A DNA stretch of 64,000 nt from Spirochaetia bacterium (GCA_963677925.2 CAXXYH010000004.1:2208001-2272000), one strand, 5' to 3'. Positions 1 through 37,684 are shown, numbered from the stretch's first letter. Made by a program: numbers and translations. Notes: generated by a model not told the origin, from the letters alone.

Positions 1-234
1 CTGCCGATGACTACGATAATCGCTATAAACCTGGGCCTTGTAATAGGAGGCGCAATTCAGGTTGAAACAATCTTCTCCTGGCCGGGGCTTGGTAGACTTA
101 TGTATGAGGCACTGATAAACAGGGATTATCCTCTGCTCCAGGGGATTTTCATGCTGGTAAGCATAGCAGTAATCGGGGCTAACCTCATCGCTGATATTCT
201 CTACAGTTATCTTGATCCGAGGGTAAAGGGATGA
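1..234 (+). CDS. Peptide/nickel ABC transporter permease, OppB/DppB family (5' truncated by window edge)
   Basis: C-terminal motifs VETIFSWPGLG, RDYPLLQG and DILYSYLDPRV; frame is open from base 1. Confidence 0.9.
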   Translation: MPMTTIIAINLGLVIGGAIQVETIFSWPGLGRLMYEALINRDYPLLQGIFMLVSIAVIGANLIADILYSYLDPRVKG

Positions 235-1127
235 TGGTTGATACAAATAAGTTAAACGACAGCAGCGTCAGTATTAAAAACAGGAATAAAGACCTTCTTG
301 ATGCCTTTTTGCAGAACCGTATGGGAATGGCCGGGTTTATCATGTTTTCATTTTTTCTTCTGATGGCTGTATTCGGGCCGCTGTTTCTTCCCTACGATCC
401 GCTTGAGTTCGGCAGCGGCTCCGATGTGTTTGCTGCACCAAGCCTCGAGCATCCGCTAGGACTTGATGATATGGGCAGGGATGTAATGAGGGCGCTCATT
501 TCCGGATCGCGGGTTTCCCTTCTGGTAGGGGTGCTTGCCACGGTTATTTCAATGATGCTCGGTACGGTAATAGGAATTGTTTCCGGATATTTCGGAGGCA
601 AAACCGACATGCTTCTCATGCGCTTTACCGATATCTTTCTTGTTCTGCCCTGGCTGCCTCTTATGCTGGTAATAGCCGCTATACTTGGCAGTAATATCTG
701 GAATATTATCTTTGTTATCGGTCTTACAAGCTGGTCGGGGACTGCAAGAGTAGTACGTGCCCAGACGCTTACCGTAAAAGAGAATCAGTATGTTGAAAGG
801 GCCAAGGCAATTGGAGCCGGACATCTGCATATAATGTTCAAGCATATAATGCCGAATGTTTTCCCGCTGGTATTTGCAAATACAATACTCATTGCCGCAG
901 TGGCTATTATATCCGAAACAACTCTAAGCTTTCTGGGGATGGGCGATACCCTTCGTCCGAGCTGGGGGATGATGCTGCATTTTGCATTCGAGTCCGGGGC
1001 TTCAAGTGCCGGCGCTTTCTGGTTTCTCATCCCGCCGGGAATCTGCGTAATTCTGGTTGTTCTGTCCTTTACATTCCTCGGATACGCATTTGATGAAATA
1101 CTGAATCCCAAACTGAGGCGCAGGTAG
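231..1127 (+). CDS. Peptide ABC transporter permease, OppC/DppC family
   Basis: HPLGLDDMGRD, EAA loop YVERAKAIGA, KHIMPNV, PSWGMML. Confidence 0.92.
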   Translation: MMVDTNKLNDSSVSIKNRNKDLLDAFLQNRMGMAGFIMFSFFLLMAVFGPLFLPYDPLEFGSGSDVFAAPSLEHPLGLDDMGRDVMRALISGSRVSLLVGVLATVISMMLGTVIGIVSGYFGGKTDMLLMRFTDIFLVLPWLPLMLVIAAILGSNIWNIIFVIGLTSWSGTARVVRAQTLTVKENQYVERAKAIGAGHLHIMFKHIMPNVFPLVFANTILIAAVAIISETTLSFLGMGDTLRPSWGMMLHFAFESGASSAGAFWFLIPPGICVILVVLSFTFLGYAFDEILNPKLRRR

Positions 1128-1131
1128 ATAA

Positions 1132-2097
1132 ATGGAATTACTTGAAATAAATAATCTTGTTACTAATTTTACTATAAAGGCCGGAGTTGTTCAGGCTGTA
1201 AACGGCGTGGGCTTCAGTCTTGGTAAAGGTGAAACCCTCGGCGTCGTAGGCGAATCCGGCTGCGGTAAATCCACACTTGCACTGTCGATTGCAAGGCTGC
1301 TCCCGAAAGAAGGAAAATCCACCGGTGGTGAGGTAATTCTTGACGGCACAGACCTGCTAAAACTTTCAGACGAAGAACTGAGACAGAGAAGGTGGAAGGA
1401 TTTTTCCATAGTGTTTCAGGGTGCGATGAATGCTCTTAATCCGGTAATGAAGGTCGGAGAGCAGATATCTGAGGTGATAATGCTTCATGAAAAATGTACT
1501 CCGAAGGCCGCAAAGGAAAAAGTCATTGAATTGTTTGAACTTGTGGAAATAGACAAGGCAAGGGTTAACAATTATCCGCATGAATTCAGCGGCGGTATGA
1601 AGCAGCGGGTAATGATTGCAATGGCGCTTGCCTGTTCTCCGAAACTGCTCATAGGTGATGAACCGACCACCGGCCTTGATGTTATTGTTCAGGCCCAGAT
1701 ACTTGATCTGCTTAGAAGGCTGTGCAGTTCAAAGGATATGGCTTTTATTCTAATTACACACGACCTTTCCATTCTCTCGGAGATTGCAGACAAGGTGGCA
1801 GTAATGTACGCGGGGAATATTGTTGAAATAGGTAAAACAGAAGATGTCCTTCAGAAAAGCGCTCATCCATACACCCGGAAACTGGCAGAATCATTTCCTG
1901 ATGTTAACGGAAAAAGGGAAATGGTGTCATCAATTCCCGGAACGCCGCCGAATCTGATTAATCCTCCCCACGGCTGCAGGTTTCATCCCCGATGTGAGTC
2001 GACCTGCGATATCTGCAGAACTGAGGTTCCTGAATATCAGGATCTTGGAAATGGTCACCTTGTAGCCTGCCACAGCGGGTCAGGAGTTTTAAAATGA
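1132..2097 (+). CDS. Peptide ABC transporter ATP-binding subunit, OppD family
   Basis: Walker A GESGCGKS, YPHEFSGGMKQR, DEPTT, C-terminal GCRFHPRC/VACH oligopeptide domain. Confidence 0.93.
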   Translation: MELLEINNLVTNFTIKAGVVQAVNGVGFSLGKGETLGVVGESGCGKSTLALSIARLLPKEGKSTGGEVILDGTDLLKLSDEELRQRRWKDFSIVFQGAMNALNPVMKVGEQISEVIMLHEKCTPKAAKEKVIELFELVEIDKARVNNYPHEFSGGMKQRVMIAMALACSPKLLIGDEPTTGLDVIVQAQILDLLRRLCSSKDMAFILITHDLSILSEIADKVAVMYAGNIVEIGKTEDVLQKSAHPYTRKLAESFPDVNGKREMVSSIPGTPPNLINPPHGCRFHPRCESTCDICRTEVPEYQDLGNGHLVACHSGSGVLK

Positions 2098-3098
2098 GTG
2101 CTGTAATTGAAGCCAGGGATCTTAAGATTCATTTTGACATACGAAAGAGTTTTATCGAAGAAGTTATAAAGAACAATAAAAGCCGGGTGAAGGCTGTAGA
2201 CGGAATCAACCTTGAAATAAAAAAAGGCGAGATTGTCTCACTGGTAGGTGAGAGCGGCAGCGGAAAGACCACTCTTGGAAAGGCTCTGCTTTCGCTGGTT
2301 CCTAAAACAGACGGTACAATACTTTTTGACGGGAATGAGGTCCATGCCAAAAAAGGGCGCGAGCTTTCACTTTTCAGACAGAAAGCGCAGATTATTTACC
2401 AGGATCCCTATAAATCGCTTAATCCGCGGTATCTTATTCAGGATATAGTCGCCGAACCGCTGGTGGTAAACAGGCTGGTAAAGACGGCAGCTGAACAGCG
2501 TGAAAGGGTTATCGAAGCACTTACCTGGGCCGGACTTACACCGGCAGAGGATTACCTTCACCGCTTTCCTCATGAACTTAGCGGCGGGCAGAGACAGCGT
2601 GTTGCCATTGCCACCACGCTGATCATGAAACCTGAATTCATCGTTGCTGATGAGCCGGTTTCTATGCTGGATGTGTCAATAAGGGCGGATATACTGAAAC
2701 TGATGGTAGGGCTTCGTGACCGAATGGGTATTTCATACTTGTTTATCACCCACGACCTGTCCCTTGCCTGGCTGATATCAGACCGGATTGCGATTATGTA
2801 CCTTGGGAAGATTGTAGAGATAGGTCCGCCCGCCCTGATTGTGGGTGATTCTCTTCATCCCTATACCCGGGCTCTCATTGATGTAATGCCCCATGTTAAA
2901 TCCTCGGGTAAGAGAAAAAAATCGATACTTAAAGGTGAAACTCCAAATCCGATAAACCTTCCTTCCGGCTGCAGATTCCATCCCAGATGCCCTGCTGCGC
3001 AGGATATATGCAGGAAGGAAGAGCCTGTTCTTCGAAAGATGAAGGATAATCATTTTGTTTCCTGCCACCTTGCAGAAAATTTTGCGGCGGAGGGCTGA
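2094..3098 (+). CDS. Peptide ABC transporter ATP-binding subunit, OppF family
   Basis: GESGSGKT, FPHELSGGQRQR, DEPVSMLDVS, GCRFHPRC. Confidence 0.93.
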   Translation: MSAVIEARDLKIHFDIRKSFIEEVIKNNKSRVKAVDGINLEIKKGEIVSLVGESGSGKTTLGKALLSLVPKTDGTILFDGNEVHAKKGRELSLFRQKAQIIYQDPYKSLNPRYLIQDIVAEPLVVNRLVKTAAEQRERVIEALTWAGLTPAEDYLHRFPHELSGGQRQRVAIATTLIMKPEFIVADEPVSMLDVSIRADILKLMVGLRDRMGISYLFITHDLSLAWLISDRIAIMYLGKIVEIGPPALIVGDSLHPYTRALIDVMPHVKSSGKRKKSILKGETPNPINLPSGCRFHPRCPAAQDICRKEEPVLRKMKDNHFVSCHLAENFAAEG

Positions 3099-3099
3099 A

Positions 3100-4272
3100 A
3101 TGGCAGGTTTGAAAGAGATTACAAATGCCGTTGAGAAATACAGGCAGGAACTGGTCGAGATGGCCGGAACCATTCACCATAATCCGGAAATCGGCGGTAA
3201 TGAGTTTATTGCCATGGAGGCAATCTGCGGTTTCCTTGAAAGACACGGCTTCGATGATGTTCAGCGCGGTGTCGGAGAGCTTAAAACAGCATTCACTGCT
3301 GTATGCAAGGTTAACGGCGGAGGCGGGCTGCGGATCGGTTTCTGTGCTGAATATGATGCCCTGCCCGAAATAGGTCATGCCTGCGGGCATAACCTGATAG
3401 GCGGCGCCAGTGTTGCCGCTGCGGTTGCCCTGGCGGAATGTGGTACTGATATTCCGTTTGAGGTAGTTCTGATCGGAACTCCGGATGAAGAGATAAGCGG
3501 CGGTAAGGTAGATTTGATAAAACTTGGTATATTCGATGATATCGATGCCGCCATGATGTTTCATTCCGGCTACGGCACTTCAATTCATACAGAGTCTCTT
3601 GCATGCAAGACCTGGCTGTTCGGTTACAGGGGCAGAAACGCGCATGCCGCATCCGAGCCGGAAAAGGGCAGGAATGCACTGGACGGTGTGATGCTTACTT
3701 TTACCAATATCAATTACCTGAGGCAGTATCTTAGAGAGGATACGCGCATTCACGGAATAATCAAGGAAGGCGGAAAAGCCAGCAACGTAGTTCCTGATTA
3801 CGCGGTTGCCGAAATATGCATTCGTTCAAAGGATAATGATTACCTGGCATATATTGAAGAGCGCGTCATGGACTGTGCGAAAGCCGGTGCTCTCGCATCG
3901 GGCACAGAGCTTGAAGTGACCCTTTACGGCAATCCATATGATGCAATGGAAAGCAATACCGTTATGGAAGGCCTTTTCAGTGAGAGTCTTGATGAAATTG
4001 CTTATGTTGATATAGCAAAGCATACCGAAAAAACCGGTTCGATAGATATGGGAAATGTAAGCAGGGTAGTCCCTGCGATTCATCCTGTGATTTCGATTTC
4101 TGAGGATGTAGTCATAGGCCATACCCGTGAATATGCGGCTTTATGCGACACACAGAAGGCGTACAATATTATGCTTGAAGTCGGTAAAGCCCTTGCTATG
4201 ACCGGTTATAAAATTATCACTACTTCCGGAATGATTGAGCAGATAAAATCAGAGTTCAGCAGCAGGGGCTGA
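3100..4272 (+). CDS. M20 amidohydrolase/dipeptidase (ACY1L2/PM20D2/AbgB-like)
   Basis: AEYDALPEIGHACGHNLIG, GTPDEE, GRNAHAA, GSIDMGNVS; ATG 3100 follows GGAGG and the oppF stop, so preferred over track start 3055. Confidence 0.85.
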   Translation: MAGLKEITNAVEKYRQELVEMAGTIHHNPEIGGNEFIAMEAICGFLERHGFDDVQRGVGELKTAFTAVCKVNGGGGLRIGFCAEYDALPEIGHACGHNLIGGASVAAAVALAECGTDIPFEVVLIGTPDEEISGGKVDLIKLGIFDDIDAAMMFHSGYGTSIHTESLACKTWLFGYRGRNAHAASEPEKGRNALDGVMLTFTNINYLRQYLREDTRIHGIIKEGGKASNVVPDYAVAEICIRSKDNDYLAYIEERVMDCAKAGALASGTELEVTLYGNPYDAMESNTVMEGLFSESLDEIAYVDIAKHTEKTGSIDMGNVSRVVPAIHPVISISEDVVIGHTREYAALCDTQKAYNIMLEVGKALAMTGYKIITTSGMIEQIKSEFSSRG

Positions 4273-4313
4273 GCTTTTCAGCTGATTGCTTTAAGCATTT
4301 GTGAGGTTAAAAA

Positions 4314-4332
4314 TCCGGGCATTCCGCCCGGA
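4314..4332. terminator. GC hairpin between convergent genes, probable intrinsic terminator
   Basis: TCCGGGC-attcc-GCCCGGA; A-run at 4309-4313 gives a U-tract on the minus strand. Confidence 0.6.
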
Positions 4333-4337
4333 ATATT

Positions 4338-5570
4338 TCAGATAATATCAACAGCCTCTCTGATCACTTTGACAGTATATTCCAGGTCTTCCTGAGTATG
4401 CCTGTAGCATATGTATCCATGATGATAGGGCTGCTGGAATACTCCGTTTCTAATCAGATAGGTATAGAAGTCATTTCTGCGTCTTTTATATGCGGGATCC
4501 ATGTCCTTATTGAATGTGATGAATGACATTGGAGGGATGCCTGAGAGTTCAATGCCCTTTCCGGAATTTTCAAGAATCCGGTTTACCTCATTCATATACC
4601 AGGTACCTTTTTCCCAAATCTTATCGAGGATGCTGTCACGTTCAAGAATCTCGATAGTTTTTAAAGCGGCCACATAGCCAAGACTGTTCGGGAAATAGGT
4701 GGAAGAGATAAATACATCCGATTCTCCCTGCTTCATTATTTCAGATTTTCCCGTGACAGCCGCAATGGAATAGCCGTTTGCCATGGCCTTTCCGAATACA
4801 GCCATATCAGGAGTTACTCCGTAGTATTTCTGGGCTCCTCCTATACTGACCCTGAAGCCAGAGCGAATCTCATCGAAAATCAGGACCGCCCCGTATTTCC
4901 GGGCCAGTTCCTGCACGCCCTCAAGGAAGCCTTCTGCGGGTTCCTCCATATTGTGAGCCAGCGGATGTCCCACAGGAGTAACTATGATTGCAGCTGTCTG
5001 ATCTCCGTGTTTTTTCATTAGATCTTCGAGTCCCTGCAGATCATTGTAGTGGAACTCAAATACATCCTCGTACAGTTTTGCAGGGATGCCTCCCTTAACC
5101 TCTACACACCAGTCATGCCATCCGTGGTAACCGCAGCGCATAATCTTGTCCCTTCCGGTGTAGCTTCTGGCAAGCCGTACAGCTGTGGTTGTAGCATCGG
5201 AGCCTGTTTTAACGAAGAGGCTCATCTCTGAGCAGGGAATTATTTCAGTAAGTTTTTCGGCCAGTTCATTCTGGTATGTCTGGGTCAGGGAGAAACAGAA
5301 CCCCCTGTCCCGAATCTGTTTTATTACAGCCTCATCCACCTCGGTTTCCCTGTAACCCAGGATAATAGGACCATAGGCGCACAGGTAGTCGATGTATTCG
5401 TTTCCATCGATATCGGTGATTTTCCCGCCTTTTCCCTCCTCGATAAAAACAGGATATTCTCCGTCCACGAAGTTATAGGGTCTTCTTATTCCGAGAACTC
5501 CTCCGGGAATAAGTTTTTTTGCTCTTTCAAGTTCTTTAAATGATTGGGTCAGTTTTTTTTCAGGCACCAT
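4338..5570 (-). CDS. kat: Class III PLP aminotransferase, 3-aminobutyryl-CoA aminotransferase (Kat)-like
   Basis: GGVLGIRRPYNFVDGEYP, GYHGWHDWCVEVKGGIP, FDEIRSGFR, FGKAMANG, QPYHHGYICYRH match my recollection of Cloacimonas Kat; next to kamDE-kce-kdd-kamA and no kal in the cluster. Confidence 0.8.
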   Translation of the reverse strand: MVPEKKLTQSFKELERAKKLIPGGVLGIRRPYNFVDGEYPVFIEEGKGGKITDIDGNEYIDYLCAYGPIILGYRETEVDEAVIKQIRDRGFCFSLTQTYQNELAEKLTEIIPCSEMSLFVKTGSDATTTAVRLARSYTGRDKIMRCGYHGWHDWCVEVKGGIPAKLYEDVFEFHYNDLQGLEDLMKKHGDQTAAIIVTPVGHPLAHNMEEPAEGFLEGVQELARKYGAVLIFDEIRSGFRVSIGGAQKYYGVTPDMAVFGKAMANGYSIAAVTGKSEIMKQGESDVFISSTYFPNSLGYVAALKTIEILERDSILDKIWEKGTWYMNEVNRILENSGKGIELSGIPPMSFITFNKDMDPAYKRRRNDFYTYLIRNGVFQQPYHHGYICYRHTQEDLEYTVKVIREAVDII

Positions 5571-5605
5571 TATTTTTACCTCTGAATTAGATTGTACAAA
5601 AATGA

Positions 5606-5622
5606 ATGCAGGAACTGTGCCA
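5606..5622 (-). promoter_or_regulatory. sigma54 (-24/-12) promoter of kat
   Basis: Minus strand reads TGGCACAGTTCCTGCAT (GG-N10-GC), about 36 nt upstream of the kat ATG. Confidence 0.8.
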
Positions 5623-5737
5623 GAAACAGGGCTTTATTTGACAGGTTTAATACGGGAAAAGGCTTATTTTTGGTAAAAAAGTCTGATCTTGTCTATAAAA
5701 ATCAACCATACTGAGCTTCAGGCTGTCAAAAAAAGGG

Positions 5738-5759
5738 GCTGATTCATTTATGAATCAGC
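5738..5759. promoter_or_regulatory. Perfect palindrome, candidate enhancer (UAS) for the kat sigma54 promoter
   Basis: GCTGATTCAT-tt-ATGAATCAGC; overlaps the activator stop codon, about 117 bp upstream of the -24 element. Confidence 0.6.
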
Positions 5760-7172
5760 TTGTTCGCCTATGCCGTAATACTTCATTTTCCGTACTATGG
5801 TTGACTGGCTGATCTCAAGTACGGCTGCCATTTTCCGTGTGAACCGGTGTTTCTGCCAGGCATTGGTTATCAGTTTCTTTTCAAAGGCTTCGACCGCTTC
5901 AGTAAGGGGCTGTATCTGCACAGACATTCCGTCAGATTTAATGATAAGCTCCTCTTTAATATAATCAGACAGATCCTCCCTGGTTATCAGTTTGCCAGAA
6001 GAAAGTACTGCTATTCTTTCAATTGTATTCTCCAGCTCCCTAGTATTTCCGGGCCAGTCGTAGGCCTCAAGCAGCACCAGAGCTTCAGGCGAGAATCGAA
6101 GCTGTTTGTTGAATTTAAGGTTGAACACCTCTATGAAATGATTTATAAGCGGGATAATATCATCCCTGCGATCCCGGAGAGGCGGAATATGAATAGGTAC
6201 AACATTGAGTCTGTAATAGAGATCCTGGCGGAATGTCCCTTCCTGTACCATTTTTTTTAGATTTTTATTGGTGGCTGAAATAATCCTGACATTAATCTTA
6301 ATCGGTTTCCGGCCCCCGATACGGGTTATTTCCTTTTCCTGTATGGCTCTCAGCAGTTTTACCTGCAGGTTCAGACTTATATCACCGATCTCATCGAGGA
6401 AGAGAGTTCCTCCCTCGGCTACTTCAAATAATCCCTGTTTCCCGCCGCGATCAGCTCCTGTAAACGAGCCTTTTTCGTACCCGAAAAGTTCACTTTCCAG
6501 CAGATTTTCGGGGATGGCACTGCAGACAGCGGTGATAAGCGGCTTATTCACGCTTGTCCCTGCGTTATGGATGGCGCGTGAAATAATTTCCTTACCGACT
6601 CCGGATTCTCCGGTTATAAGCACGGTGGAATCGACCTCTCCGAGCCTGAGGGCAAACTTCATAATGTCTTTCATCTGCTGTGATGAAATAATGACATGCT
6701 CCATTTTCATCTGCTGAAGCCGGAGATTAAGAACCTCCATTCTGTAAAGTTCATTTCTTTTTTCCGTCTGGGCAAGGCGGGTTTCAAGATTTTTAAGATC
6801 TGCCATATCACGGAGAGTTGTTACAACGCGGGTGATATTTCCGCTTTCATCGAAGATTGGCGTACCGGTTAGAATGATTTCTTTTCCGTTGGGAAGGGTT
6901 TCGGCAACGCTTGTTGTACATCTGGTTTCCAGAACCATTGTGCTGACCGATTTATTATACACACCGGTTTCTACAAGTTCATCCACCGTCTTCCCGGTGG
7001 TTTCGGATGATTTTATTCCGGTGATTTCTTCGAAGGCCTTATTTGTACGAAGTGTAATTCCGTTTCCGTCAGTAATATATATGCCGTCTGTGACAGAATC
7101 AATAATGGCGTCCAGCTCCCTTATAAGCTGCTGCCGGTTTGCAAGTTCCGCTTCAAGTTCCTTAATTTTCAA
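5748..7172 (-). CDS. PAS-domain sigma54-dependent transcriptional activator (bEBP) with TyrR-type HTH
   Basis: N-terminal PAS; GESGVGKE, ESELFGYEKGSFTGA, LFLDEIG, FRQDLYYRLNV, WPGNTREL; C-terminal TRKMAAVLEISQSTIVRKM. Confidence 0.92.
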   Translation of the reverse strand: MKIKELEAELANRQQLIRELDAIIDSVTDGIYITDGNGITLRTNKAFEEITGIKSSETTGKTVDELVETGVYNKSVSTMVLETRCTTSVAETLPNGKEIILTGTPIFDESGNITRVVTTLRDMADLKNLETRLAQTEKRNELYRMEVLNLRLQQMKMEHVIISSQQMKDIMKFALRLGEVDSTVLITGESGVGKEIISRAIHNAGTSVNKPLITAVCSAIPENLLESELFGYEKGSFTGADRGGKQGLFEVAEGGTLFLDEIGDISLNLQVKLLRAIQEKEITRIGGRKPIKINVRIISATNKNLKKMVQEGTFRQDLYYRLNVVPIHIPPLRDRRDDIIPLINHFIEVFNLKFNKQLRFSPEALVLLEAYDWPGNTRELENTIERIAVLSSGKLITREDLSDYIKEELIIKSDGMSVQIQPLTEAVEAFEKKLITNAWQKHRFTRKMAAVLEISQSTIVRKMKYYGIGEQADS

Positions 7173-7198
7173 TTCGGCCTCCGTCTGAATATTATCAC

Positions 7199-7236
7199 TG
7201 ATTCAAAAATAACTCAACTGAACTGAATATGACTCA
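7199..7236. promoter_or_regulatory. Two tandem TGA-N12-TCA boxes, candidate UAS for the kam operon
   Basis: TGATTCAAAAATAACTCA (7199-7216) and TGAACTGAATATGACTCA (7219-7236) resemble TGATTCATTTATGAATCA at 5740-5757. Confidence 0.55.
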
Positions 7237-7297
7237 GTAATCTTCTTGTATACCGCATAAATCGCCTGAAACAGCGGTAAATCGGGCTTTTTTGTGC

Positions 7298-7314
7298 TGG
7301 CATGCTTCTTGCAT
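7298..7314 (+). promoter_or_regulatory. sigma54 (-24/-12) promoter of the kam operon
   Basis: TGGCATGCTTCTTGCAT (GG-N10-GC), about 45 nt upstream of the kamD TTG, which has a GGAGG RBS. Confidence 0.85.
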
Positions 7315-7358
7315 TAAAATCTAAAGATAAATAGCAAGTCACCTTCGGAGGTTTCCTT

Positions 7359-8922
7359 TTGGAAGAAAAAATAAAAATTGATCATGAGCTTCTGGGCAGA
7401 TGCAGAAAAGCTGCTGTCAGAATTTCCGATAATGTCATGTCGTCCATAGCCGGCCGTACCACCACCTCGGTTGAACGTACAGTTGCAAGGCTGCTGGGGA
7501 TAGACGGTGTGGATGAGCAGGGAATTCCTCTGCCTAATGTTCTGGTTGAACAGCTTAAGACGCATGGAAAACTTGAGGACGGAATCTTTTACTGGTTAGT
7601 GAATTCAATGATAGAGACCGGTAAATCCCCGCGGGAAATAGCTTTGGCAGTAGGAAAGGGAGAGTATGTAATAACAGACTCAAGGCAATATTCCGATGAT
7701 GAAATCCGGCGTACTGCCGGTCCGCTTCTTGAAGAGCGGATCAGTCTTTTTGATGAATCAATTGAGCAGAGGAAAGAGCTTCATTCAAAATATCCGGCAG
7801 GGATAACACCTCTTCTGTATGTGATTGTAGCCACCGGGAATATCTACGAAGATACAGTTTCAGGCGAAGGCTGCCGCAAGGCAGGGGGCGGATATAATTG
7901 CAGTTATCCGTACAACGGCCCAGAGCCTTCTTGATTACGTCCCCTTCGGCCCTACAACCGAGGGCTTCGGCGGAACCTATGCTACCCAGGAAAATTTCCG
8001 CATTATGAGAAAGGCTCTGGATGAGGTCACCGAAGAAACCGGAAGATACATTCATCTGGTAAATTACGCGTCGGGACTCTGTATGCCCGAAATAGCAGTC
8101 ATGGGGGCCTTTGAAGGGCTTGATATGATGCTGAACGACGCAATGTACGGAATACTGTTCCGGGACATCAATATGCAGCGGACTTTTATCGATCAGTACT
8201 TTTCAAGAATGATAAACGCCTGCGCCGGAATTATTATAAACACCGGTGAAGACAATTATCTTACTACAGCTGATGCTCTTGAAAACGGTCACACGGTTCT
8301 TGCCTCTCAGTTTATAAACGAGGAACTTGCCCTGCGCTCGGGAATGCCTAAGAATCTGATAGGACTGGGGCATGCCTTTGAGATTAACCCTGATAAGGAA
8401 GACGGTTTTCTGCTTGAGATAGCACAGGCCCAGCTTATACGGCAGATCTTTCCTGACTGTCCGATAAAGTATATGCCTCCAACAAAGTATATGACCGGAA
8501 ATATCTTTAAGGGGCAGCTCATGGACGGGATGTTCAACCTGGCTTCTGTGATGACAGGGCAGAGTATTCAGCTGCTGGGAATGATGACAGAGGCCATTCA
8601 CACTCCATTTATTCAGGACAGGGCTCTCAGCATTCAGAATGCAAGGTACATCTTCAACAATGCCAGACATCTTCAGGATGAAATAAGCTACCGTCCCGAC
8701 GGAATTATTCAGACCAGAGCTGCTGAAATTCTCAGGCAGACTACTGATATGCTCGAAAAGATTGCGGAGAAGGGGCTGATGCAGGCTATAGAAGATAAAA
8801 TGTTTGCCGATATTTCCCGCCCGCGTGAAGGCGGCAAGGGTAATGACGGTGTTATAGGAATCAGCAGTAATTACAGCAATCCATTTTTGGACATCTTTAA
8901 AAAAAGGCTGGGACTGATATGA
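7359..8922 (+). pseudogene. kamD: D-lysine/beta-lysine 5,6-aminomutase alpha subunit, interrupted by a +1 frameshift at 7858-7860 (may be a sequencing error)
   Basis: 5' ORF has TTTSVERTVARLLGIDGVD and YVIVATGNIYED. Removing one T from GTTT restores QAKAAARQGADIIAVIRTTAQSLLDYVPFGPTTEGFGGTYATQENFRIMRKALD, in frame with ORF 8005-8922 (NYASGLCMPE, NTGEDNYLTT, KYMPPTK). Confidence 0.9.
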
Positions 8923-9674
8923 GCGGAAAGTCAGATATAAGACCCTACGGGGATACCCTTAATGACGGGATGGTGCAGGTAAGTTTCTCCGTCCCGATGC
9001 AGGCAGGGCCGGAAGCCTCTGAAGCGGCTAAGCAGCTTGCTGAGAAGATGGGGCTGCAGAATGTGAGCAATGTATCCAGTCAGGATTTGAGCGAGGGATT
9101 CAGCTTTCACATCCTCTACGGCAAATGCAGCGTTTCTGTAGATGCATCACAAATCAGCATTCCCAGGGTGGAGACCCCGGTTCTAAACTTCTATGAAATT
9201 AACGATCTCATAAAAGAAAAAATAGGAAGAAAGATTAATGTTGTCGGGGCCTGTACCGGCTTTGATGCCCATACAGTCGGTCTGGATGCAATAATGAATA
9301 TGAAAGGCTATGCAGGTGAATACGGGCTTGAACGCTACCCGGAAATCAACACCTGGAATCTCGGAAGTCAGGTGCCCAATGAGGAACTTATTAAAAAGGC
9401 TGTTGAGGTGGAAGCCGATGCGATACTTGTCTCTCAGGTGGTAACCCAGAAGGATATCCATATTAAAAACCTGACAAACCTTGTTGAACTGCTTGAGGCG
9501 GAAAATATAAGAGACCGATTTATTCTGATCGTCGGTGGCCCCCGGATAAGTCATGAGCTTGCCCTGGAACTCGGGTTTGATGCAGGTTTCGGTCCCGGCT
9601 CACTGCCTCCTGATGTTGCATCGTTTATAGCACAGCTTCTGGAGAAAAGGCTGCCGGAACAGAGGGGGTTGTAG
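8919..9674 (+). CDS. kamE: Lysine 5,6-aminomutase beta subunit (B12-binding)
   Basis: RPYGDTLNDGMVQ, B12 motif DAHTVG, PLP lysine in MNMKGYAGEYGLERY. Confidence 0.95.
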   Translation: MSGKSDIRPYGDTLNDGMVQVSFSVPMQAGPEASEAAKQLAEKMGLQNVSNVSSQDLSEGFSFHILYGKCSVSVDASQISIPRVETPVLNFYEINDLIKEKIGRKINVVGACTGFDAHTVGLDAIMNMKGYAGEYGLERYPEINTWNLGSQVPNEELIKKAVEVEADAILVSQVVTQKDIHIKNLTNLVELLEAENIRDRFILIVGGPRISHELALELGFDAGFGPGSLPPDVASFIAQLLEKRLPEQRGL

Positions 9675-9675
9675 A

Positions 9676-10500
9676 TTGGAAAAGCTGATAATTACAGCCG
9701 CGGTCTGCGGTGCGGAAGTTACAAAAGATGATAATCCCAATCTTCCGGTTACGGCTGCGGAGCTTGCGGCTGCAGCGCTTGAAGCAGAACTTGCAGGCGC
9801 CTCGGTTATACACCTCCATGTAAGGGATGAGCAAGGACTGCCGACCCAGAGGCTGCAGTATTTCAGAGCGGCATTCGAGGCGATGAAGCAGGCAGGAGTC
9901 AGTGCGATAATTCAGCCATCTACCGGAGGAGCCGCGGGTATGAGCGCCTCTGAACGAATAGAGGTTCTTGATCTGATTCCGGAAATGGCCACACTTGACT
10001 GCGGTACTATCAACTTCGGGGAAGAGGTTTTTACCAACGATCTGCCTCTGATGAGAAGTATCGCGCAGAGAATGAAGGCTGATAATATTATTCCCGAGCT
10101 TGAATGCTTTGAGACAGGCCATATTTACAACGCTCTCCGGCTTGGCAAGGATGGTCTTCTTCCGGAACATCTGCATTTCAACCTTGTTCTCGGCGTTCCG
10201 GGAGCAATGCCGGCATCGGTAAAAAACCTGCTCTTTCTTGTTGAGCAGCTGCCGCAGGGCGCTACATGGACAGCCTCCGGAATCGGATCTAATCAGCTGC
10301 CTGTTGCAATGCACACAATGATGCTCGGAGGTCATGTCAGGGTTGGATTTGAGGATAATATTTATTATTCAAGGGGCAGGCTTGCCGGAAGCAATGCGGA
10401 GCTTGTGGCAAGAATTGCAAGAATTGCGGAAGAAGCCGGACGGGAGATTGCCTCTCCGGCGGAGGCCAGAGTTATACTTAATATCAGGGAGAAGAAATAA
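9676..10500 (+). CDS. kce: 3-keto-5-aminohexanoate cleavage enzyme
   Basis: KLIITAAVCGAE, IHLHVRD, QPSTGGA, HVRVGFEDN (BKACE family) in a lysine cluster. Confidence 0.93.
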   Translation: MEKLIITAAVCGAEVTKDDNPNLPVTAAELAAAALEAELAGASVIHLHVRDEQGLPTQRLQYFRAAFEAMKQAGVSAIIQPSTGGAAGMSASERIEVLDLIPEMATLDCGTINFGEEVFTNDLPLMRSIAQRMKADNIIPELECFETGHIYNALRLGKDGLLPEHLHFNLVLGVPGAMPASVKNLLFLVEQLPQGATWTASGIGSNQLPVAMHTMMLGGHVRVGFEDNIYYSRGRLAGSNAELVARIARIAEEAGREIASPAEARVILNIREKK

Positions 10501-11535
10501 ATGAAGAAGGGAAATATTTTCGGCCTGCACAGGGTTATTGAGCCGGAAGGGGTACTGCCTCAGCCGGCGCTCAAGATAGATAATTCAATGGATATCTATG
10601 ATAACGAGATACTCATAGATGTTGATACACTTAATATAGATTCCGCGAGTTTTACACAGATAGAAAAAGCCTGCGGCGGGGATGAGAAAAAAATAAGTGA
10701 GATGATTCTATCTATAGTAAACGAGCGGGGCAAGATGCAGAATCCGGTTACCGGCTCAGGCGGAATGCTGATAGGGACTATTGCCGGTGTCGGCGAAAAG
10801 CTGAAAGATCGTGATTTGACCGTGGGGGAAAAAATCATAAGCCTCGTATCGCTATCTCTTACGCCTCTTAAGATTGAAAAGATCATCGAGGTGAAATCAG
10901 ATATCGATCAGGTTCGTGTTAAAGCCCGAGCAGTTCTCTTTGAATCGGGAATTTACGCCAAACTTCCGGAGGGCATGGAGGAGTCGCTTGCCCTGGCTGT
11001 CCTTGATGTAGCCGGGGCCCCCGCACAGACGGCGAAGCTTGTTCAACCAGGTGATACTGTACTGATTATCGGAGCCGGAGGAAAATCAGGACTGCTCTGT
11101 CTGCATGAGGCAAAAAAGCGTGCGGGTGTCAGTGGAAGGGTAATAGGCCTCTCCCACAGCAAAGGCGGGGTTGAGCGTATTAAGAAAACAGGCCTGGCTG
11201 ATATTGTCCTTCAGGCTGATGCATCGAAACCCGTTGAACTTTATGAAATGATCATGGAAGCGACAGCCGGCAGGCTTGCCGATATCGTTATAAACAATGT
11301 CAACGTTCCCGATACCGAGATGGGCTCAATTCTATGTACAAAAGATGAGGGCACCCTGTATTTCTTCAGCATGGCTACAAGCTTTACAAAGGCCGCTTTG
11401 GGCGCTGAGGGAGTCGGCAAGGATATCAACATGATAATCGGAAACGGATACACCAAGGACCACGCGGAAATTACTCTTCAGGTTCTTAAGGAAAATCCTG
11501 TACTCAGGAAAATGTTTGAGGAACTGTATACCTGA
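10501..11535 (+). CDS. kdd: L-erythro-3,5-diaminohexanoate dehydrogenase
   Basis: GLHRVIEPEGVLPQPA, LNIDSASF, GKMQNPVTGSGG, LDVAGAPAQ, FFSMATSF. Confidence 0.95.
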   Translation: MKKGNIFGLHRVIEPEGVLPQPALKIDNSMDIYDNEILIDVDTLNIDSASFTQIEKACGGDEKKISEMILSIVNERGKMQNPVTGSGGMLIGTIAGVGEKLKDRDLTVGEKIISLVSLSLTPLKIEKIIEVKSDIDQVRVKARAVLFESGIYAKLPEGMEESLALAVLDVAGAPAQTAKLVQPGDTVLIIGAGGKSGLLCLHEAKKRAGVSGRVIGLSHSKGGVERIKKTGLADIVLQADASKPVELYEMIMEATAGRLADIVINNVNVPDTEMGSILCTKDEGTLYFFSMATSFTKAALGAEGVGKDINMIIGNGYTKDHAEITLQVLKENPVLRKMFEELYT

Positions 11536-12746
11536 TGATACCGCAGGCAGCTGTCGAAAAATACATAAATTATGAAAGCGTAACCGGTCTTCTCTCGGAA
11601 CTTGTCGGTATACACAGCCCATATTTCAGGGAAACCGGGATTGTAGATTATGTTTACAGCTGGCTTGCGGACAGACATCTGCCTGTGGAACTTTACAGTT
11701 TTTCCGAAGCAAAGATTACCGGAGTAAGCGGCAGGAATGTCGTTGGCGAGCTGTGCGGAAGCAACGGCGGTCCGAAACTTCTTATAAACGGTCATCTTGA
11801 TACGGTGGATATATGCGAAGGGTGGACAAGAAATCCTCTTGACGCTGAAATTGCCGACGGCAGACTCTACGGTCTGGGTGCTCTGGATATGAAGGGCGGG
11901 GTTGCCGCTGCAATGCTTGCTATTGAGGCCTTCAGCATGATTAAACCGGAGTTCCGGGGACGTTTACAGTATACATTTGTAAGCGGCGAGGAAGGGCCCT
12001 ACGGACTTGGAACTGATGCCCTTATTAATGACGGAATAATCAGCAGGGCTGATGCCGCACTTGTTCCGGAGCCCAGCGCCGCCTTCTGCGGTGTCGAGTT
12101 TCCCTGCCTCTGCCTCGGAGCGAGGGGAGGCTGGCATTACACGGTGAAGTTTACCGGACGCAGCGCCCATGCCGCGGCTCCGGAGGACGGCCTGAATGCG
12201 GTCTCCGAGGCGTCAAGGTTTATATGCGAGCTTGAGAAAACAGCCCTTCCGGAAAGAGTGCCGCTTGGAAGGGGTTCGATCTGTATTACCGGAATCAGCG
12301 GAGGCGGGAAAACCTGCTCTGTTGCGGAGGATGCGTCTGTCACGGTGCTGCGGCATGTAACACTCGGTGAGGACCCGCAGCTGCTTATGAAAGAGATTAA
12401 TGCTGCAGCGCAGCGCGCCGGAATCCGCTGTGACTATGAGGTTAAATTCCGGGAGGCTCCGGGGCCGGGAAGTGAGGGCTTTCATCCCTATGTGGTGGAT
12501 AAAAACAGTCCTGAAAGCAGACTCCTGATGGAAAGCATCCTGGATGTTACCGGCCGGGAGGCTGATACAGCTTATTTTTCAAGCATCGGTGATTTTAATT
12601 ATATAAGCAGCAGAGCGGGAATCCCCGCATATATCTTCGGTCCGGACGGAGGAAATTATCACGGTCCGGATGAATACGTAATAATTGATTCAGTGGTGGA
12701 AACCGCGAAAGTAATACTTGATTTTATTATAAGATTTTTTAGGTAG
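11535..12746 (+). CDS. M20 metallopeptidase/deacylase (ArgE/DapE family)
   Basis: NGHLDTV, GLGALDMKGG, GEE, GRSAHAA, HGPDEY; start overlaps the kdd stop and it ends 6 nt before kamA. Confidence 0.88.
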   Translation: MIPQAAVEKYINYESVTGLLSELVGIHSPYFRETGIVDYVYSWLADRHLPVELYSFSEAKITGVSGRNVVGELCGSNGGPKLLINGHLDTVDICEGWTRNPLDAEIADGRLYGLGALDMKGGVAAAMLAIEAFSMIKPEFRGRLQYTFVSGEEGPYGLGTDALINDGIISRADAALVPEPSAAFCGVEFPCLCLGARGGWHYTVKFTGRSAHAAAPEDGLNAVSEASRFICELEKTALPERVPLGRGSICITGISGGGKTCSVAEDASVTVLRHVTLGEDPQLLMKEINAAAQRAGIRCDYEVKFREAPGPGSEGFHPYVVDKNSPESRLLMESILDVTGREADTAYFSSIGDFNYISSRAGIPAYIFGPDGGNYHGPDEYVIIDSVVETAKVILDFIIRFFR

Positions 12747-12752
12747 GTTACC

Positions 12753-14036
12753 ATGAAAGAATACAGCAGAGTCAGCTATAAGGATGTGCCGCTTTACAGC
12801 AATGTAACGGACGAGCAGTGGAATGACTGGCGATGGCAGATGAAGAACTGCATTACCGATATTGAAACACTTTCAAAGATTACAGAGCTTGATGAAAAAG
12901 AAATTGAAGATCTTGAAAAGACGCTTAAAAAGTTCAAGATGTCCATTACCCCCTATTACGCAATGCTTATGGACAGGAGCTACAAACTCTGCTCTGTCAG
13001 GCTTCAGGCAATTCCGAGGGTAGAGGAGCTTAATTACGATGAATCGGACATGGAGGATCCTCTTCATGAGGATGTTGATTCATCGGTGCCCGGACTGACT
13101 CACAGGTATCCTGACCGGGTTCTTCTTCTTGTTACGAGTATCTGTTCAATGAACTGCAGGCACTGTACACGGAGGAGACTTGTAGGCCAGAAGGATACCC
13201 ATATGAGCTGGGACCGGATACAGCTGGCAATTGATTATATTCGGGAGCATACAGAGGTAAGGGATGTTCTTATCTCAGGTGGAGATCCGCTTACGCTTGC
13301 TGATTCATATCTTGAGCGGATACTTAAGGCACTGCGGGAAATCCCGCATGTTGAGATAATCAGAATTGGAACAAGGACTCCTGTCGTAATGCCGATGAGG
13401 ATAACCGATGAACTCACGGACATGCTGAAAAAATATCATCCACTCTATATAAATACTCATTTTAACCATTACTCCGAGGTCACCCACGAGGCAAAGCAGG
13501 CATGCGAAAAACTTGCCAACGCAGGAATTCCGCTCGGCAACCAGAGTGTCCTTCTTCGTGATGTCAACGACTGTCCGAGAATTATGAAAAAGCTCGTGCA
13601 TGAGCTTCTGATGATCCGGGTCAAACCCTATTATATTTACCAGTGCGATCTTTCAAGCGGCATATCGCATTTCAGGGTTTCAGTTTCAAAGGGCATTGAG
13701 ATTGTTGAAAGCCTGCGCGGCCATACAACAGGTATGGCTGTTCCAACATACGTGGTTGATGCCCCAGGCGGCGGCGGAAAAATCCCCCTTATGCCTAATT
13801 ATCTTCTATCGCATTCAGACAAGCGCTATGTGCTCAGAAACTATGAGGGGGTAATTACCACCTATACCCAGCCGGCCAATATCTTTTCGGAATGCTGGTG
13901 CGAGCTGTGTAAAAATGATGAGTACGGGCCTCTGGACGGAGTAGCGAAACTGCTTAACGGAAAAAAGCTTGCCCTGGAACCCAAGGGTCTTGTCAGGAGG
14001 ATGAGGAGCCTGAATGGTAAAAAGCAGGGCGAATAG
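12753..14036 (+). CDS. kamA: L-lysine 2,3-aminomutase (radical SAM/PLP)
   Basis: WNDWRWQ, LTHRYPDR, CxxxCxxC (CSMNCRHC), SGGDPL, DAPGGGGKIP, C-terminal CWCELC Zn site. Confidence 0.96.
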   Translation: MKEYSRVSYKDVPLYSNVTDEQWNDWRWQMKNCITDIETLSKITELDEKEIEDLEKTLKKFKMSITPYYAMLMDRSYKLCSVRLQAIPRVEELNYDESDMEDPLHEDVDSSVPGLTHRYPDRVLLLVTSICSMNCRHCTRRRLVGQKDTHMSWDRIQLAIDYIREHTEVRDVLISGGDPLTLADSYLERILKALREIPHVEIIRIGTRTPVVMPMRITDELTDMLKKYHPLYINTHFNHYSEVTHEAKQACEKLANAGIPLGNQSVLLRDVNDCPRIMKKLVHELLMIRVKPYYIYQCDLSSGISHFRVSVSKGIEIVESLRGHTTGMAVPTYVVDAPGGGGKIPLMPNYLLSHSDKRYVLRNYEGVITTYTQPANIFSECWCELCKNDEYGPLDGVAKLLNGKKLALEPKGLVRRMRSLNGKKQGE

Positions 14037-15063
14037 GCTTATCGATATTATCAATGACAGCTGCGTCGAATCTCTTGCGATAATAGGTCTTGCCAAGAAC
14101 GCGGGAAAGACCGTTACAATGAATACCGTAATTAAGGAAACTCAGCAGCAGGGGCAGAAGATTACCGTAGTTTCATACGGACGTGACGGTGAGGATACTG
14201 ATGCTATAACTCTGAAAAAGAAACCTCATATTTATATCCCCGCCGGTTCATATTTCGTGACAGGCTCGGAAATTCTCAAGCGTACCGGCAGGCAGGCCAG
14301 GGTTATCTGTGAACTGGAAGACCGGGCCCGCATAGGAAGAGTCTGTCTGTATGAAAATGACTCTGAAGGTTTTGAGGTGGAACTGATAGGAGTTAACAGC
14401 AGAAGCGGTATTGCAGGGCTGAAAGAGCAGCTTCCGGATGATTCAGAGCTTCTGCTTATCGACGGGGCTCTTGACCGGCGCAGTTCCGCGGTGCCGGAGC
14501 TCTCCGACGGTATAATCCTTGCAACCGGAGCAGTAGTAGGAAATACAGAGGAGCTCATTGCAGAACGGACACTGGCAGAAATTGAACGCCTGACGCTCCC
14601 GGTATCTGAAGAGCATCCTGAATTAATCGGTAAAATTCTTGGTGATGGACTTTCAGCCGTTATTTATGATGGTGAGATAAAATCTGAAGGGAATACTCTT
14701 TTTAATCTTTCGGATTCTTTCGATTTCAGCAGTGTCGGCAGGAACAGCATCCTTGTCCTCAACGGGGCGCTCACCGACCGTCTTGCAGAAACTCTGCTTG
14801 CGGGGTGTGCCGAGAACTTTTCAATAGTTGTCAGGGACGGTACCCGTGTTTTTCTCAATCAGCGGAATATGAATTTATTCAGAAAGAACGGAATCAGACT
14901 TTCTGTTCAGTCCGGGATTAAACTGCTTGCCCTGACGGTTAATCCCTACAGCCCCTACGGGTTTTCTGCGGATTCGGAAACTCTTGCTGCGAAAATCAGT
15001 GAATACCTTGAAAGTGCAGGTCGGGATATTCCTGTTTATGATGTGCTGTCTGAATCTTATTAA
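14014..15063 (+). CDS. kamB: KamB-like lysine 5,6-aminomutase accessory/reactivase subunit
   Basis: IIGLAKNAGKT, SYGRDGE, LIDGALDR, ILATGA, TVNPYSP; directly after kamA. Confidence 0.75.
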   Translation: MVKSRANRLIDIINDSCVESLAIIGLAKNAGKTVTMNTVIKETQQQGQKITVVSYGRDGEDTDAITLKKKPHIYIPAGSYFVTGSEILKRTGRQARVICELEDRARIGRVCLYENDSEGFEVELIGVNSRSGIAGLKEQLPDDSELLLIDGALDRRSSAVPELSDGIILATGAVVGNTEELIAERTLAEIERLTLPVSEEHPELIGKILGDGLSAVIYDGEIKSEGNTLFNLSDSFDFSSVGRNSILVLNGALTDRLAETLLAGCAENFSIVVRDGTRVFLNQRNMNLFRKNGIRLSVQSGIKLLALTVNPYSPYGFSADSETLAAKISEYLESAGRDIPVYDVLSESY

Positions 15064-15103
15064 AAATTAATGATATTAACGATTATTAAGTTATAATGAT
15101 TTG

Positions 15104-16189
15104 ATGTCATTAAACGCTATTCTTCAGCAGCTCTATTTTACCGGTTTTGTTTTATTTTTCTTTTTTGGATTTCTGCAGCTTAGTCTGAGAAACCGGTTGC
15201 ATTTAAATTTTGCTCTTGCCTTGCTTTTCTTTTCGGGCGGATATGAGCTTTTCTATTATTGGGCATACATATCAAGAACTATCCTGAGAATTTCTTATCT
15301 GATGAATACAGAAATTGCATTAAGTTATCTTATCGGGCCGGTATTTTATTTTTATTTTTCTATGGCTCTGGGGTTTAACTCTCAATTTAAGAAACGGGAT
15401 ATAATACATGCGGTTCCTTTCATTCTTTCACTCTGCCTTATAGTAATTATCAATTATTTTGCACGTAGTGAAAACTTTTATGAACATTTTCGATATGAAT
15501 ATTTTCCTTTTTATGAACAAAGAAATCCTCTGTTTTTAATAGCAACATTCTCTGATATCTCCATTTCAGGCTATATCCTGATGACGCTTTTTAGAATATT
15601 TAAATTGCTGAAAGGAGAGACCCCCGAAAAGGAAATACGTCTGATGATTGTTTTTCTTTTCCTGATGATCATGAGTTCTGTTCTTTTAATATTAGGAGGC
15701 ATGTCAAGACTGATCTTTTTCCTGATTTTGGGAGTAGGCAGCTTTACAGTCATTGGAGCTGTCTATGTATTGTTTTCTTTCAGATATCCTGAACTCAGTA
15801 TGAAGGTTTTAAGGGAAGCAAAGATACTTCAGCAGAATAAATCCAATATTAAAAATATTGATGTTTCATCGATTCTGGAAAACCTGAATGCACTAATGGA
15901 AAACGAAAAACTATATCTTCAGGAGAACATAAACCTTAAATTTTTAAGTTCAAGACTGAAAATAACTTCTCACCAGCTGTCACGAATATTAAATGAATAT
16001 CTTCAAGTCAATTTCAGAACCTATATAAATTCATACCGTATAAAAGAAGCCATTGCTCTTTTGGAATCTTCTCCTGAGCTTGGGATTCTGGAAATATCAA
16101 TTGCAGCCGGATTTAATTCAAAATCATCGTTTTATACGGCATTTCAAAAAGAGACAGGCTGCCTTCCCGCTGAATACCGAAAAAAATGA
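15104..16189 (+). CDS. AraC-family regulator with N-terminal multi-pass membrane sensor domain
   Basis: About 7 hydrophobic segments, then LMENEKLYLQENINL, HQLSRILNE, NFRTYINSYRI, AGFNSKSSFYTAFQKETG; visibly AT-rich. Confidence 0.9.
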   Translation: MSLNAILQQLYFTGFVLFFFFGFLQLSLRNRLHLNFALALLFFSGGYELFYYWAYISRTILRISYLMNTEIALSYLIGPVFYFYFSMALGFNSQFKKRDIIHAVPFILSLCLIVIINYFARSENFYEHFRYEYFPFYEQRNPLFLIATFSDISISGYILMTLFRIFKLLKGETPEKEIRLMIVFLFLMIMSSVLLILGGMSRLIFFLILGVGSFTVIGAVYVLFSFRYPELSMKVLREAKILQQNKSNIKNIDVSSILENLNALMENEKLYLQENINLKFLSSRLKITSHQLSRILNEYLQVNFRTYINSYRIKEAIALLESSPELGILEISIAAGFNSKSSFYTAFQKETGCLPAEYRKK

Positions 16190-18170: not shown

Positions 18171-18200
18171 TTGGTTTCGATTATGTATTACGGAGAAATT

Positions 18201-36175: not shown

Positions 36176-36200
36176 CGTTTTAATCCTTTACCCCTCAGTT

Positions 36201-37550: not shown

Positions 37551-37609
37551 TTTGTAACTGTATCTCCTGTCTTTATTTAAAACATTTTGTAATAATCGAA
37601 TATTACGGG

Positions 37610-37645
37610 GAAGTATATTCAGCCTATTGGAGCTGAATATACTTC
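37610..37645. terminator. Strong intergenic hairpin downstream of the binding-protein gene (attenuator/mRNA stabiliser)
   Basis: GAAGTATATTCAGC-8nt-GCTGAATATACTTC; a second IR TTAAAATCA..TGATTTTAA lies at 37658-37678. Confidence 0.55.
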
Positions 37646-37684
37646 AATCATAAGCCTTTAAAATCAGAATGATTTTAAGATTTA

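Follow-up and report, generated by a model that had tools for sequence, protein, structure and literature searches.

A probable Kat-type lysine fermentation cluster with an accessory M20 hydrolase and a candidate sigma54 regulon in a Spirochaetia bacterium

Does a lysine fermentation cluster that lies beside a peptide importer form one system with it, and what would an M20-family hydrolase do inside the fermentation operon? Both questions are raised by a Spirochaetia bacterium (GCA_963677925.2; genome G000 herein), in which a peptide importer operon (opp) and lysine fermentation (kam) genes meet within positions 1-15063 (the locus) of a stretch of 64,000 nucleotides (nt) (CAXXYH010000004.1:2208001-2272000; the window, meaning the whole stretch analysed). 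Lysine fermentation is a main butyrate and acetate route from protein in anoxic habitats, and to our knowledge all of its core enzymes are known. An earlier note on this DNA had proposed a single integrated system, in which an opp-M20 block feeds conjugated lysine to a sigma54-controlled, Kat-type pathway. The Kat pathway, the sigma54 control, and the M20 embedded in the kam operon were retained in our analysis; the opp-M20 block was not. With modest confidence in the combination as a whole, we favour a reading in which a Kat-variant sigma54 regulon carries an accessory M20 deacylase, the opp genes form a separate operon, and a break in the kamD reading frame is an assembly error.

The kat and kam genes and their candidate regulon

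The segment 4314-15063 is a predicted regulon of sigma54 and a PAS-domain enhancer-binding protein, made up of a monocistronic kat, the activator gene, and the operon kamD-kamE-kce-kdd-M20-kamA-kamB. Genes in the window were called from an open reading frame (ORF) listing together with Pfam and NCBIfam scans at curated cut-offs. This bore out the gene order of the earlier note, with corrections to kamD, to the extent of opp, and to the name of kat. The features of the segment are listed below (L and G numbers designate compared loci and genomes).

4314-4332 (-): strong terminator-like hairpin 3' of kat (8 pairs, 6 of them G-C, with a T run)
4338-5570 (-): kat, HemL-like class-III aminotransferase; 3-aminobutyryl-CoA transaminase by similarity
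5607-5622 (-): predicted sigma54 -24/-12 promoter of kat, TGGCACAGTTCCTGCA; one mismatch; kept in L004, L024, and L097
5738-5759 (-): perfect palindrome GCTGATTCATAAATGAATCAGC; may bind the activator of kat, terminate the activator gene, or both
5748-7172 (-): enhancer-binding protein with PAS, sigma54 AAA+ (PF00158, 2e-67), and helix-turn-helix (HTH_50) domains
7198-7237 (+): half-palindromes CTGATTCA ... TGACTCAG; may bind the activator of the kam operon
7298-7313 (+): predicted sigma54 -24/-12 promoter of the kam operon, TGGCATGCTTCTTGCA; one mismatch; kept before kamD in L004, L015, L024, L090, and L097
7359-8922 (+): kamD, lysine 5,6-aminomutase alpha; frame broken by one extra base near 7858-7862
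8919-9674 (+): kamE, aminomutase beta, B12-binding (NF052385, 389 bits, cut-off 280)
9676-10500 (+): kce (NF052387, 396.7 bits, cut-off 382)
10501-11535 (+): kdd, 3,5-diaminohexanoate dehydrogenase (NF052381, 269.5 bits, cut-off 200)
11535-12746 (+): M20A dimetallohydrolase, ArgE/DapE-like, embedded in the kam operon (Pfam/NCBIfam)
12753-14036 (+): kamA, lysine 2,3-aminomutase (TIGR03820, 597.1 bits, cut-off 525.4)
14014-15063 (+): kamB, aminomutase reactivase subunit (NF052386, 266.9 bits, cut-off 210)

Neighbouring genes within the kam operon touch or overlap: the stop of kdd and the start of the M20 have 1 base in common, and the overlap of kamA with kamB is 23 bases. The curated NCBIfam cut-offs are exceeded by KamE, Kce, Kdd, KamA, and KamB. 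There is no curated kat model, and the best curated models for the kat protein are HemL-type and all under cut-off. Homologs at 70-77% identity include, among 120 matches listed, three named 3-aminobutanoyl-CoA transaminase by the Joint Genome Institute (JGI). The name kat is thus given by similarity, from the JGI-named homologs and the HemL-like character described by Perret et al. 2011. Three Kal proteins taken from other loci, each over cut-off, were used to query G000 by tblastn and gave no match, and the best score of the Kal model NF052388 in G000 is 41.6 bits (cut-off 160), in agreement with the earlier claim of a Kat-type pathway without Kal. Because Kal is absent from the genome, the cluster is assigned to the Kat variant, in which, in the passages of Perret et al. 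(2011, PMC3149608) that treat it, a "HemL-like" protein takes the place of Kal.

From these assignments, KamA would convert lysine to beta-lysine, and KamDE, reactivated by KamB, would produce 3,5-diaminohexanoate, which Kdd would then oxidise. Cleavage by Kce with acetyl-CoA would yield 3-aminobutyryl-CoA and acetoacetate, and transamination by Kat would convert 3-aminobutyryl-CoA to acetoacetyl-CoA. The thiolase, CoA-transferase, hbd, and crt steps would be supplied from elsewhere in the genome; homologs of thiolase, atoDA, hbd, and crt are found on another contig (C3, ~753-759 kb and 915-918 kb). KamC is over cut-off in none of five genomes searched in full (G000, G001, G002, G385, and G414), where only MutS-size paralogs match. 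The kam clusters of these spirochaetes have KamB without KamC; Clostridium and Desulfatiglandales loci (L079 and L055) have kamB-kamC pairs.

As deposited, kamD is split across two frames, the first (7359-7934) covering model positions 1-173 and the second, ending at 8922, positions 213-510; they score 159.8 and 557.1 bits against an NCBIfam cut-off of 600. Alignment to the sister genome (L004, 95% identical) places one surplus base in the window at GTTTCAG. An independently assembled contig from a public sequencing run (X1) matches the window over 1201 bases with a sole difference, one base missing at 7858, although its depth is only ~6 and it may derive from the window's own sample, which tempers its value for our reading. 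The surplus base is likewise missing from a more distant relative in a second run (X2). Because both L004 and the X1 contig are without the extra base, the break is probably an assembly error. If kamD were instead a true pseudogene, the cluster would be decaying and the pathway off in this organism; the frameshift is indeed present in the deposited sequence, yet X1, X2, and L004 all lack it and every other gene is intact, and we find decay very hard to credit.

Sigma54-like sites were searched with the consensus TGGCAC-N5-TTGCA. The exact consensus gave no match and one mismatch had to be tolerated; at that setting, one site was found 36 nt upstream of kat and another 45 nt upstream of kamD. 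The genome has rpoN, and the activator carries a GSFTGA loop at residue 235. It is PrdR-like but under the cut-off for that model (NF041552, 432.7 bits against 795). In the related spirochaete loci inspected, a sigma54-like site precedes kamD in 6/6 cases and kat or a ctf-kal operon in 5/5. Candidate activator sites accompany both promoters in G000: ~120 nt upstream of that of kat is a palindrome of the form TGATTCAT-AAA-TGAATCA, and the kamD promoter has half-sites 60-100 nt ahead of it; similar palindromes precede kamD in L004, L015, L024, and L097. Among 54 sigma54-like sites genome-wide, a convincing palindrome accompanies those of kat and, partly, kamD, and no others. Across C4:2198000-2224500, no sigma54-like site was found besides those of kat and kamD and one antisense site inside kamA. 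Promoters, AAA+ activator, and rpoN together define a candidate sigma54 regulon, in which the PAS-domain protein would activate two promoters, that of kat, transcribed by itself, and that of the operon kamD-kamE-kce-kdd-M20-kamA-kamB. Sigma54 control, as the earlier note had it, is supported by the two sites, by rpoN, and by the conservation of the promoters in relatives. The pathway in Spirochaetia thereby gains a regulon that can be tested, with an activator, two promoters, and a palindrome.

A third one-mismatch site in the window (41593-41608, -) precedes an unrelated ABC-transporter operon (35324-41566, -) that encodes an ABC ATPase, permeases, an SBP_bac_8 binding protein, a class-III aminotransferase, and a CN-hydrolase, with a TetR gene upstream; the operon looks like one for polyamine or amine uptake and breakdown. 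In a Halanaerobium metagenome-assembled genome (MAG) (L008, 9500-10005), an M20 gene of the embedded family is first in its operon. Because it is preceded by TGGCACATTTAATGCA and TGATTCA-type half-sites, sigma54 control of the M20 may extend beyond spirochaetes.

The embedded M20 and its family

On sequence criteria, the embedded M20 is a real, intact, and catalytically complete M20A hydrolase. H87, D89, D118, E152, E153, E179, H212, and H376 are invariant in 15 M20 sequences, and in alignments they coincide with the corresponding motifs of DapE (7uoi) and 3pfo. By analogy with the M20A residues described in the part of PMC10699109 that covers them, the set would supply the metal ligands (His, Asp, Glu, Glu, and His), the catalytic Asp and Glu, and the dimerisation-domain His. 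The best curated score is 186.6 bits (TIGR01910, cut-off 217.6), with DapE and ArgE equivalogs far under their cut-offs, and a protein-atlas homolog carries generic M20 cluster names only.

Comparison with related genomes indicates that the M20 is an insertion into an older operon. Two genomes of related genera (G385 and G410) have kamD-kamE-kce-kdd-kamA-kamB without it, and no M20 ortholog was found at E<=1e-40 in any of the 15 other Kdd-positive Spirochaetota; because of these M20-less twin operons and this absence, we treat the M20 as an add-on. A different arrangement, kamDE-kce-kdd-M20-nhaC-kamB, occurs in two further Spirochaetia, L015 (genome G001) and L024 (genome G002), where the M20 and a carrier occupy the slot held by kamA elsewhere. 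Two genomes of one genus have markedly different kam clusters: L091 (G414) has kce-kdd-kamA-kamB-kamDE-kat without the M20, and L015 (G415/G001) has kal-ctfBA-activator and kamDE-kce-kdd-M20-nhaC-kamB without kamA. The difference between G414 and G001 suggests that whole cluster variants are exchanged.

Relatives of the M20 were sought in one genome per species, which gave 565 confirmed relatives; going by record titles, the cultivated carriers include Clostridium subterminale, Natronincola peptidivorans, Anaerovirgula multivorans, and Acetomicrobium hydrogeniformans. Among the best 80 of these, 78 loci were full-length; a carrier of the NhaC, SSF, or AgcS type lies within two genes of the M20 at 52/78, a partner gene of the Amidohydro_3 (YtcJ-like) family lies beside it at 33/78, and kam genes occur within 10 kb at 15/78. 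A quick maximum-likelihood tree placed 13/16 kam-linked rows (the window included) in one 26-row clade (Shimodaira-Hasegawa-like approximate likelihood-ratio test [SH-aLRT] 95) that spans Spirochaetia, a Desulfatiglandales MAG, Synergistales, and Halanaerobiales. Gene order is kamA-M20-SSF in Synergistales, and activator, M20, carrier, hbd, crt, atoD, thl, atoA, kamB, and kamDE in Halanaerobiales. Kdd is over cut-off in 15/15 genomes with an unlinked M20 copy vs 23/301 in an even class sample, counts that ignore shared ancestry. The M20 family itself occurs in 3/300 genomes scored in the class sample (at most six candidates scored per genome, one genome unscored), and two of the three are Kdd-positive. 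By these measures the family is rare and nested in lysine fermenters; since kam loci of four phyla contain its members, which are nested in Kdd-positive genomes, the embedded M20 is not a passenger.

Some family members lie near genes of other pathways. In two Clostridiaceae MAGs (L034 and L035), no more than 10 kb separates an M20 from a sigma54 activator gene and from a gene with 29% identity to KamD, perhaps that of the ornithine aminomutase OraE; the family may also serve ornithine fermentation. In another Clostridiaceae MAG (L029) and in Anaerovirgula multivorans (L030), a carrier-M20-amidohydrolase set is found near a Kce-like BKACE protein (39-41% identity) and a distant class-III aminotransferase (24%). 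This module may belong to a different beta-keto-acid cleavage pathway.

The peptide operon and the role of the M20

The other half of the locus is an operon that begins 5.6 kb upstream of the window and ends at 4272. The 10 kb upstream of the window supplied its missing part: an iclR-type regulator gene, a third M20 (TIGR01910, 245.4 bits, cut-off 217.6), an S66 LD-carboxypeptidase, oppA, and the full oppB. Where the earlier note counted two M20 enzymes, three are therefore present, and the opp block has a regulator of its own; the upstream solute-binding gene that the note expected was recovered as oppA, a family-5 binding protein. Features of this operon within the window are as follows.

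1-231 (+): oppB permease, last 76 codons (from the translation; start upstream of the window; full gene at L003 9254-10234, BPD_transp_1)
231-1127 (+): oppC permease (PF00528 and OppC_N)
1132-2097 (+): oppD ATPase (ABC_tran and oligo_HPY)
2094-3098 (+): oppF ATPase (ABC_tran and oligo_HPY)
3100-4272 (+): M20D amidohydrolase, last gene of the opp operon (TIGR01891, 177.9 bits, cut-off 153.75; likely ATG at 3100, ORF opens at 3055)

The full unit is a nine-gene operon, iclR-M20-S66-oppABCDF-M20D, with a complete Opp/Dpp-type importer (the family-5 binding protein, two permeases, and two ATPases with an oligo_HPY tail). The S66 protein has both S66 Pfam domains (N and C) and scores 158 bits against the LdcA model NF008424 (cut-off 378). 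The nearest solved structures to the M20D, aligned over near full length, are HmrA (PDB 3ram, E 1.6e-63) and the Xaa-Arg dipeptidase PM20D2 (PDB 7yh4, E 7.3e-57). Because an LD-carboxypeptidase is combined with a dipeptidase-like M20D, cell-wall-type or Xaa-basic peptides are plausible substrates. Under its IclR-type regulator, the operon would import and dismantle such peptides and may add lysine to the pool.

The opp block is an autonomous peptide-uptake operon, adjacent to the kam regulon and outside it. By motif it is excluded because there is no sigma54-like site before or within it, and it converges on kat across the terminator. A single system, in which Lys peptides or isopeptides enter through Opp, are deblocked by the M20s of the two units, and supply lysine for fermentation as a cross-feeding module, would account for the adjacency of opp and kam in G000 and its sister genome, for the resemblance of the M20D to Xaa-Arg/Lys-type dipeptidases, and for the absence from G000 of the carrier that accompanies the M20 elsewhere. 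It also gains from co-occurrence: M20D orthologs are present in 4/41 relatives (three genera), and all four are among the eight Kdd-positive genomes of the 41, a hint of a functional tie that counts against our reading and that we scored low. The separate regulator and the intervening terminator speak against such a system, as does the distribution of the operon. It is kept whole in two other genera, at 312 kb from the kam cluster in G414 (per-protein identity 54-75%) and in G420 on a different contig from kam; the kam operons of G385 and G410 have no opp nearby, and G385 has atoDA after kat instead. No kam gene or kat was found in the flanks of M20D relatives (38-55% identity) at any of 80 metagenome loci, ~5 of which keep opp genes before the M20D. 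The M20D ortholog is likewise absent from the 400 other genomes of a phylum sample, despite 15 being Kdd-positive, and only G000 itself matched. Physical linkage of opp and kam was thus found only in this genus (G000 and the sister genome), and the linkage in relatives on which the earlier note had staked part of its proposal did not appear. The case for opp and kam as one physical or regulatory unit is largely refuted, a single system is in our view unlikely, and annotation of the pathway should leave out the adjoining peptide operon.

For the embedded M20, the simplest reading is that it is probably a deacylase or dipeptidase that releases L-lysine from a small imported conjugate. As an accessory entry enzyme it would most likely strip a small imported lysine derivative of its acyl (or aminoacyl) group, freeing lysine for KamA. 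An imported small substrate is favoured because the carriers beside family members are of types that handle amino-acid-sized solutes and not oligopeptides. The M20 directly adjoins kamA in the window and in Synergistales, which suggests that its product is alpha-lysine. Within the sections of PMC10699109 on these enzymes, alpha-aminoacylases are M20A proteins, and epsilon-lysine acylases (the only cloned ones) are YtcJ-like. The earlier proposal that M20 enzymes deblock lysine thus survives for the kam-embedded enzyme, nested in fermenters and commonly beside carriers; it does not for the opp-linked M20D as part of the system. A recurrent accessory hydrolase of this kind would widen the substrate range of lysine fermentation to blocked lysines.

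If the M20 were instead a deacylase for N-epsilon-acetyl-beta-lysine (or another acyl-beta-lysine), the pathway would be entered at beta-lysine and a methanogen osmolyte eaten. The presence of M20 and nhaC in the kamA slot of the operon in G001 and G002 is in line with this, as is the lack in G001 (5.2 Mb, single contig) of a KamA over cut-off (286.4 bits against 525.4) while kamDE, kce, kdd, and kal are present; many close homologs also come from halophilic or alkaliphilic anaerobes, judged by record names. KamA is nevertheless over cut-off in G000, G002, G003, G406, G407, and G408, with a fragment at a contig end in G005, and G001 keeps a 41%-identical KamA-family paralog that might serve, although KamA-positive relatives have this paralog too. 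With no acetyltransferase or other beta-lysine marker found, and with the position of the M20 beside kamA in the window and in Synergistales, we judge entry at beta-lysine improbable. A housekeeping or repair role, either in DapE/ArgE-like biosynthesis or in clearing N-acylated intermediates that arise from side reactions with acetyl-CoA or acetoacetyl-CoA, would fit the ArgE/DapE subfamily of the best curated matches, the established chemistry by which free amines meet reactive thioesters in this pathway, and the ability of relatives to run the operon without an M20. The score under the DapE/ArgE cut-off, the other M20 paralogs in the genome, and the pairing with carriers and a second amidohydrolase, which points to an imported substrate, all argue the other way, and a biosynthetic role would not produce a distribution nested in lysine fermenters; we consider such a role quite remote. 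That the M20 generally replaces KamA was considered separately and rejected: only G001 and G004 (a 1.9 Mb MAG) are without KamA, G005 has the fragment, and the others have KamA.

The preferred reading, an accessory deacylase for a small imported lysine conjugate within a sigma54 regulon, has several points weighing against it. G000 has no NhaC or SSF partner beside the M20 and no close NhaC genome-wide; because of this, and because the only adjacent importer is Opp, the carrier argument is borrowed from relatives. The M20 family is under every equivalog cut-off, neighbouring genes were tallied over the best 80 of 565 relatives, and co-occurrence with Kdd was counted irrespective of ancestry. 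One genome (G507) has the M20 without Kdd, on a small contig. Genes in the compared loci were called as crude longest ORFs, and, by its score, the kat-side palindrome (5738-5759) could also be the terminator of the activator gene.

A broader proposal is that the M20 family is an undescribed entry enzyme that, with its carrier, lets fermenters in several phyla use acetylated lysine-type osmolytes, and that in G001-like genomes it replaces KamA as the source of beta-lysine. We regard this as doubtful. If true, the osmolytes would be N-epsilon-acetyl-beta-lysine from methanogens, or N-epsilon- or N-alpha-acetyl-lysine from halophiles and protein turnover, a pool of acetyl-lysine and acetyl-beta-lysine for which we know of no anaerobic sink. 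A literature search found no account of an M20 in kam clusters or of acetyl-beta-lysine deacetylases; most subscription journals were outside the search, which makes this weak evidence of novelty. For the Bacillus subtilis gene yodQ, what emerged was its naming in the primer tables of PMC12361552.

Downstream of kamB, an AraC-family regulator gene (15101-16189, +) has 33.7% G+C vs ~47% around it and is 95% conserved in the sister genome. Large genes for surface proteins of the GLUG/fn3 kind come next (16269-20042).

Comparison with known systems

The individual parts of the locus have counterparts in several systems. In Bacillus subtilis, kamA-yodP-yodQ-yodRS-yodT combines KamA, an M20 deacylase, a class-III aminotransferase, a CoA-transferase, and an acetyltransferase, without kamDE, kdd, or kce. 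PM20D2, a structural neighbor of the M20D, acts on beta-alanyl-lysine. Murein-peptide units (LdcA/Mpp-Opp in E. coli and dpp-ykfABCD in B. subtilis) place an S66 carboxypeptidase beside an Opp/Dpp importer and peptidases. Where those units have an epimerase and an NlpC/P60 peptidase, the opp operon has M20 enzymes.

The Streptomyces alpha-aminoacylase (M20A) and epsilon-lysine acylase (YtcJ-like), whose substrates in the relevant sections of PMC10699109 are N-alpha- and N-epsilon-acyl-lysines, belong to the two families that flank each other in 33/78 M20 loci. The likeness is at the level of family only, and the window cluster has no YtcJ-like partner. The Clostridiales ornithine operon ord-ortBA-oraSEF-orr-nhaC, as presented in the consulted parts of Nie et al. 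(2019, PMC6615313), has in common a PrdR-like OrdR with sigma54, a B12-aminomutase, a basic amino acid as substrate, and NhaC in the operon. It differs in acting on ornithine and not lysine, and the paper nowhere contains "kam" or "aminomutase".

Classical Kal clusters, as in Fusobacterium nucleatum and Clostridium sticklandii (Perret et al. 2011), share the first four steps and their enzymes. They use Kal and include a mutS-like gene, and no M20 is reported for them in the passages of that paper that describe them. The Kat-type clusters of "Ca. Cloacamonas acidaminovorans" and a digester Bacteroidetes contig, in the corresponding passages (PMC3149608), have no kal, a HemL-like class-III aminotransferase, kamA, kamDE, kdd, and kce. 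The window cluster differs from the Cloacamonas type described there in occurring in Spirochaetia, in having kat on a separate predicted sigma54 transcript, in having no KamC/MutS-like gene, and in its embedded M20. By similarity, the core of the kam cluster is the published Kat variant, and the accessory M20 is the added element.

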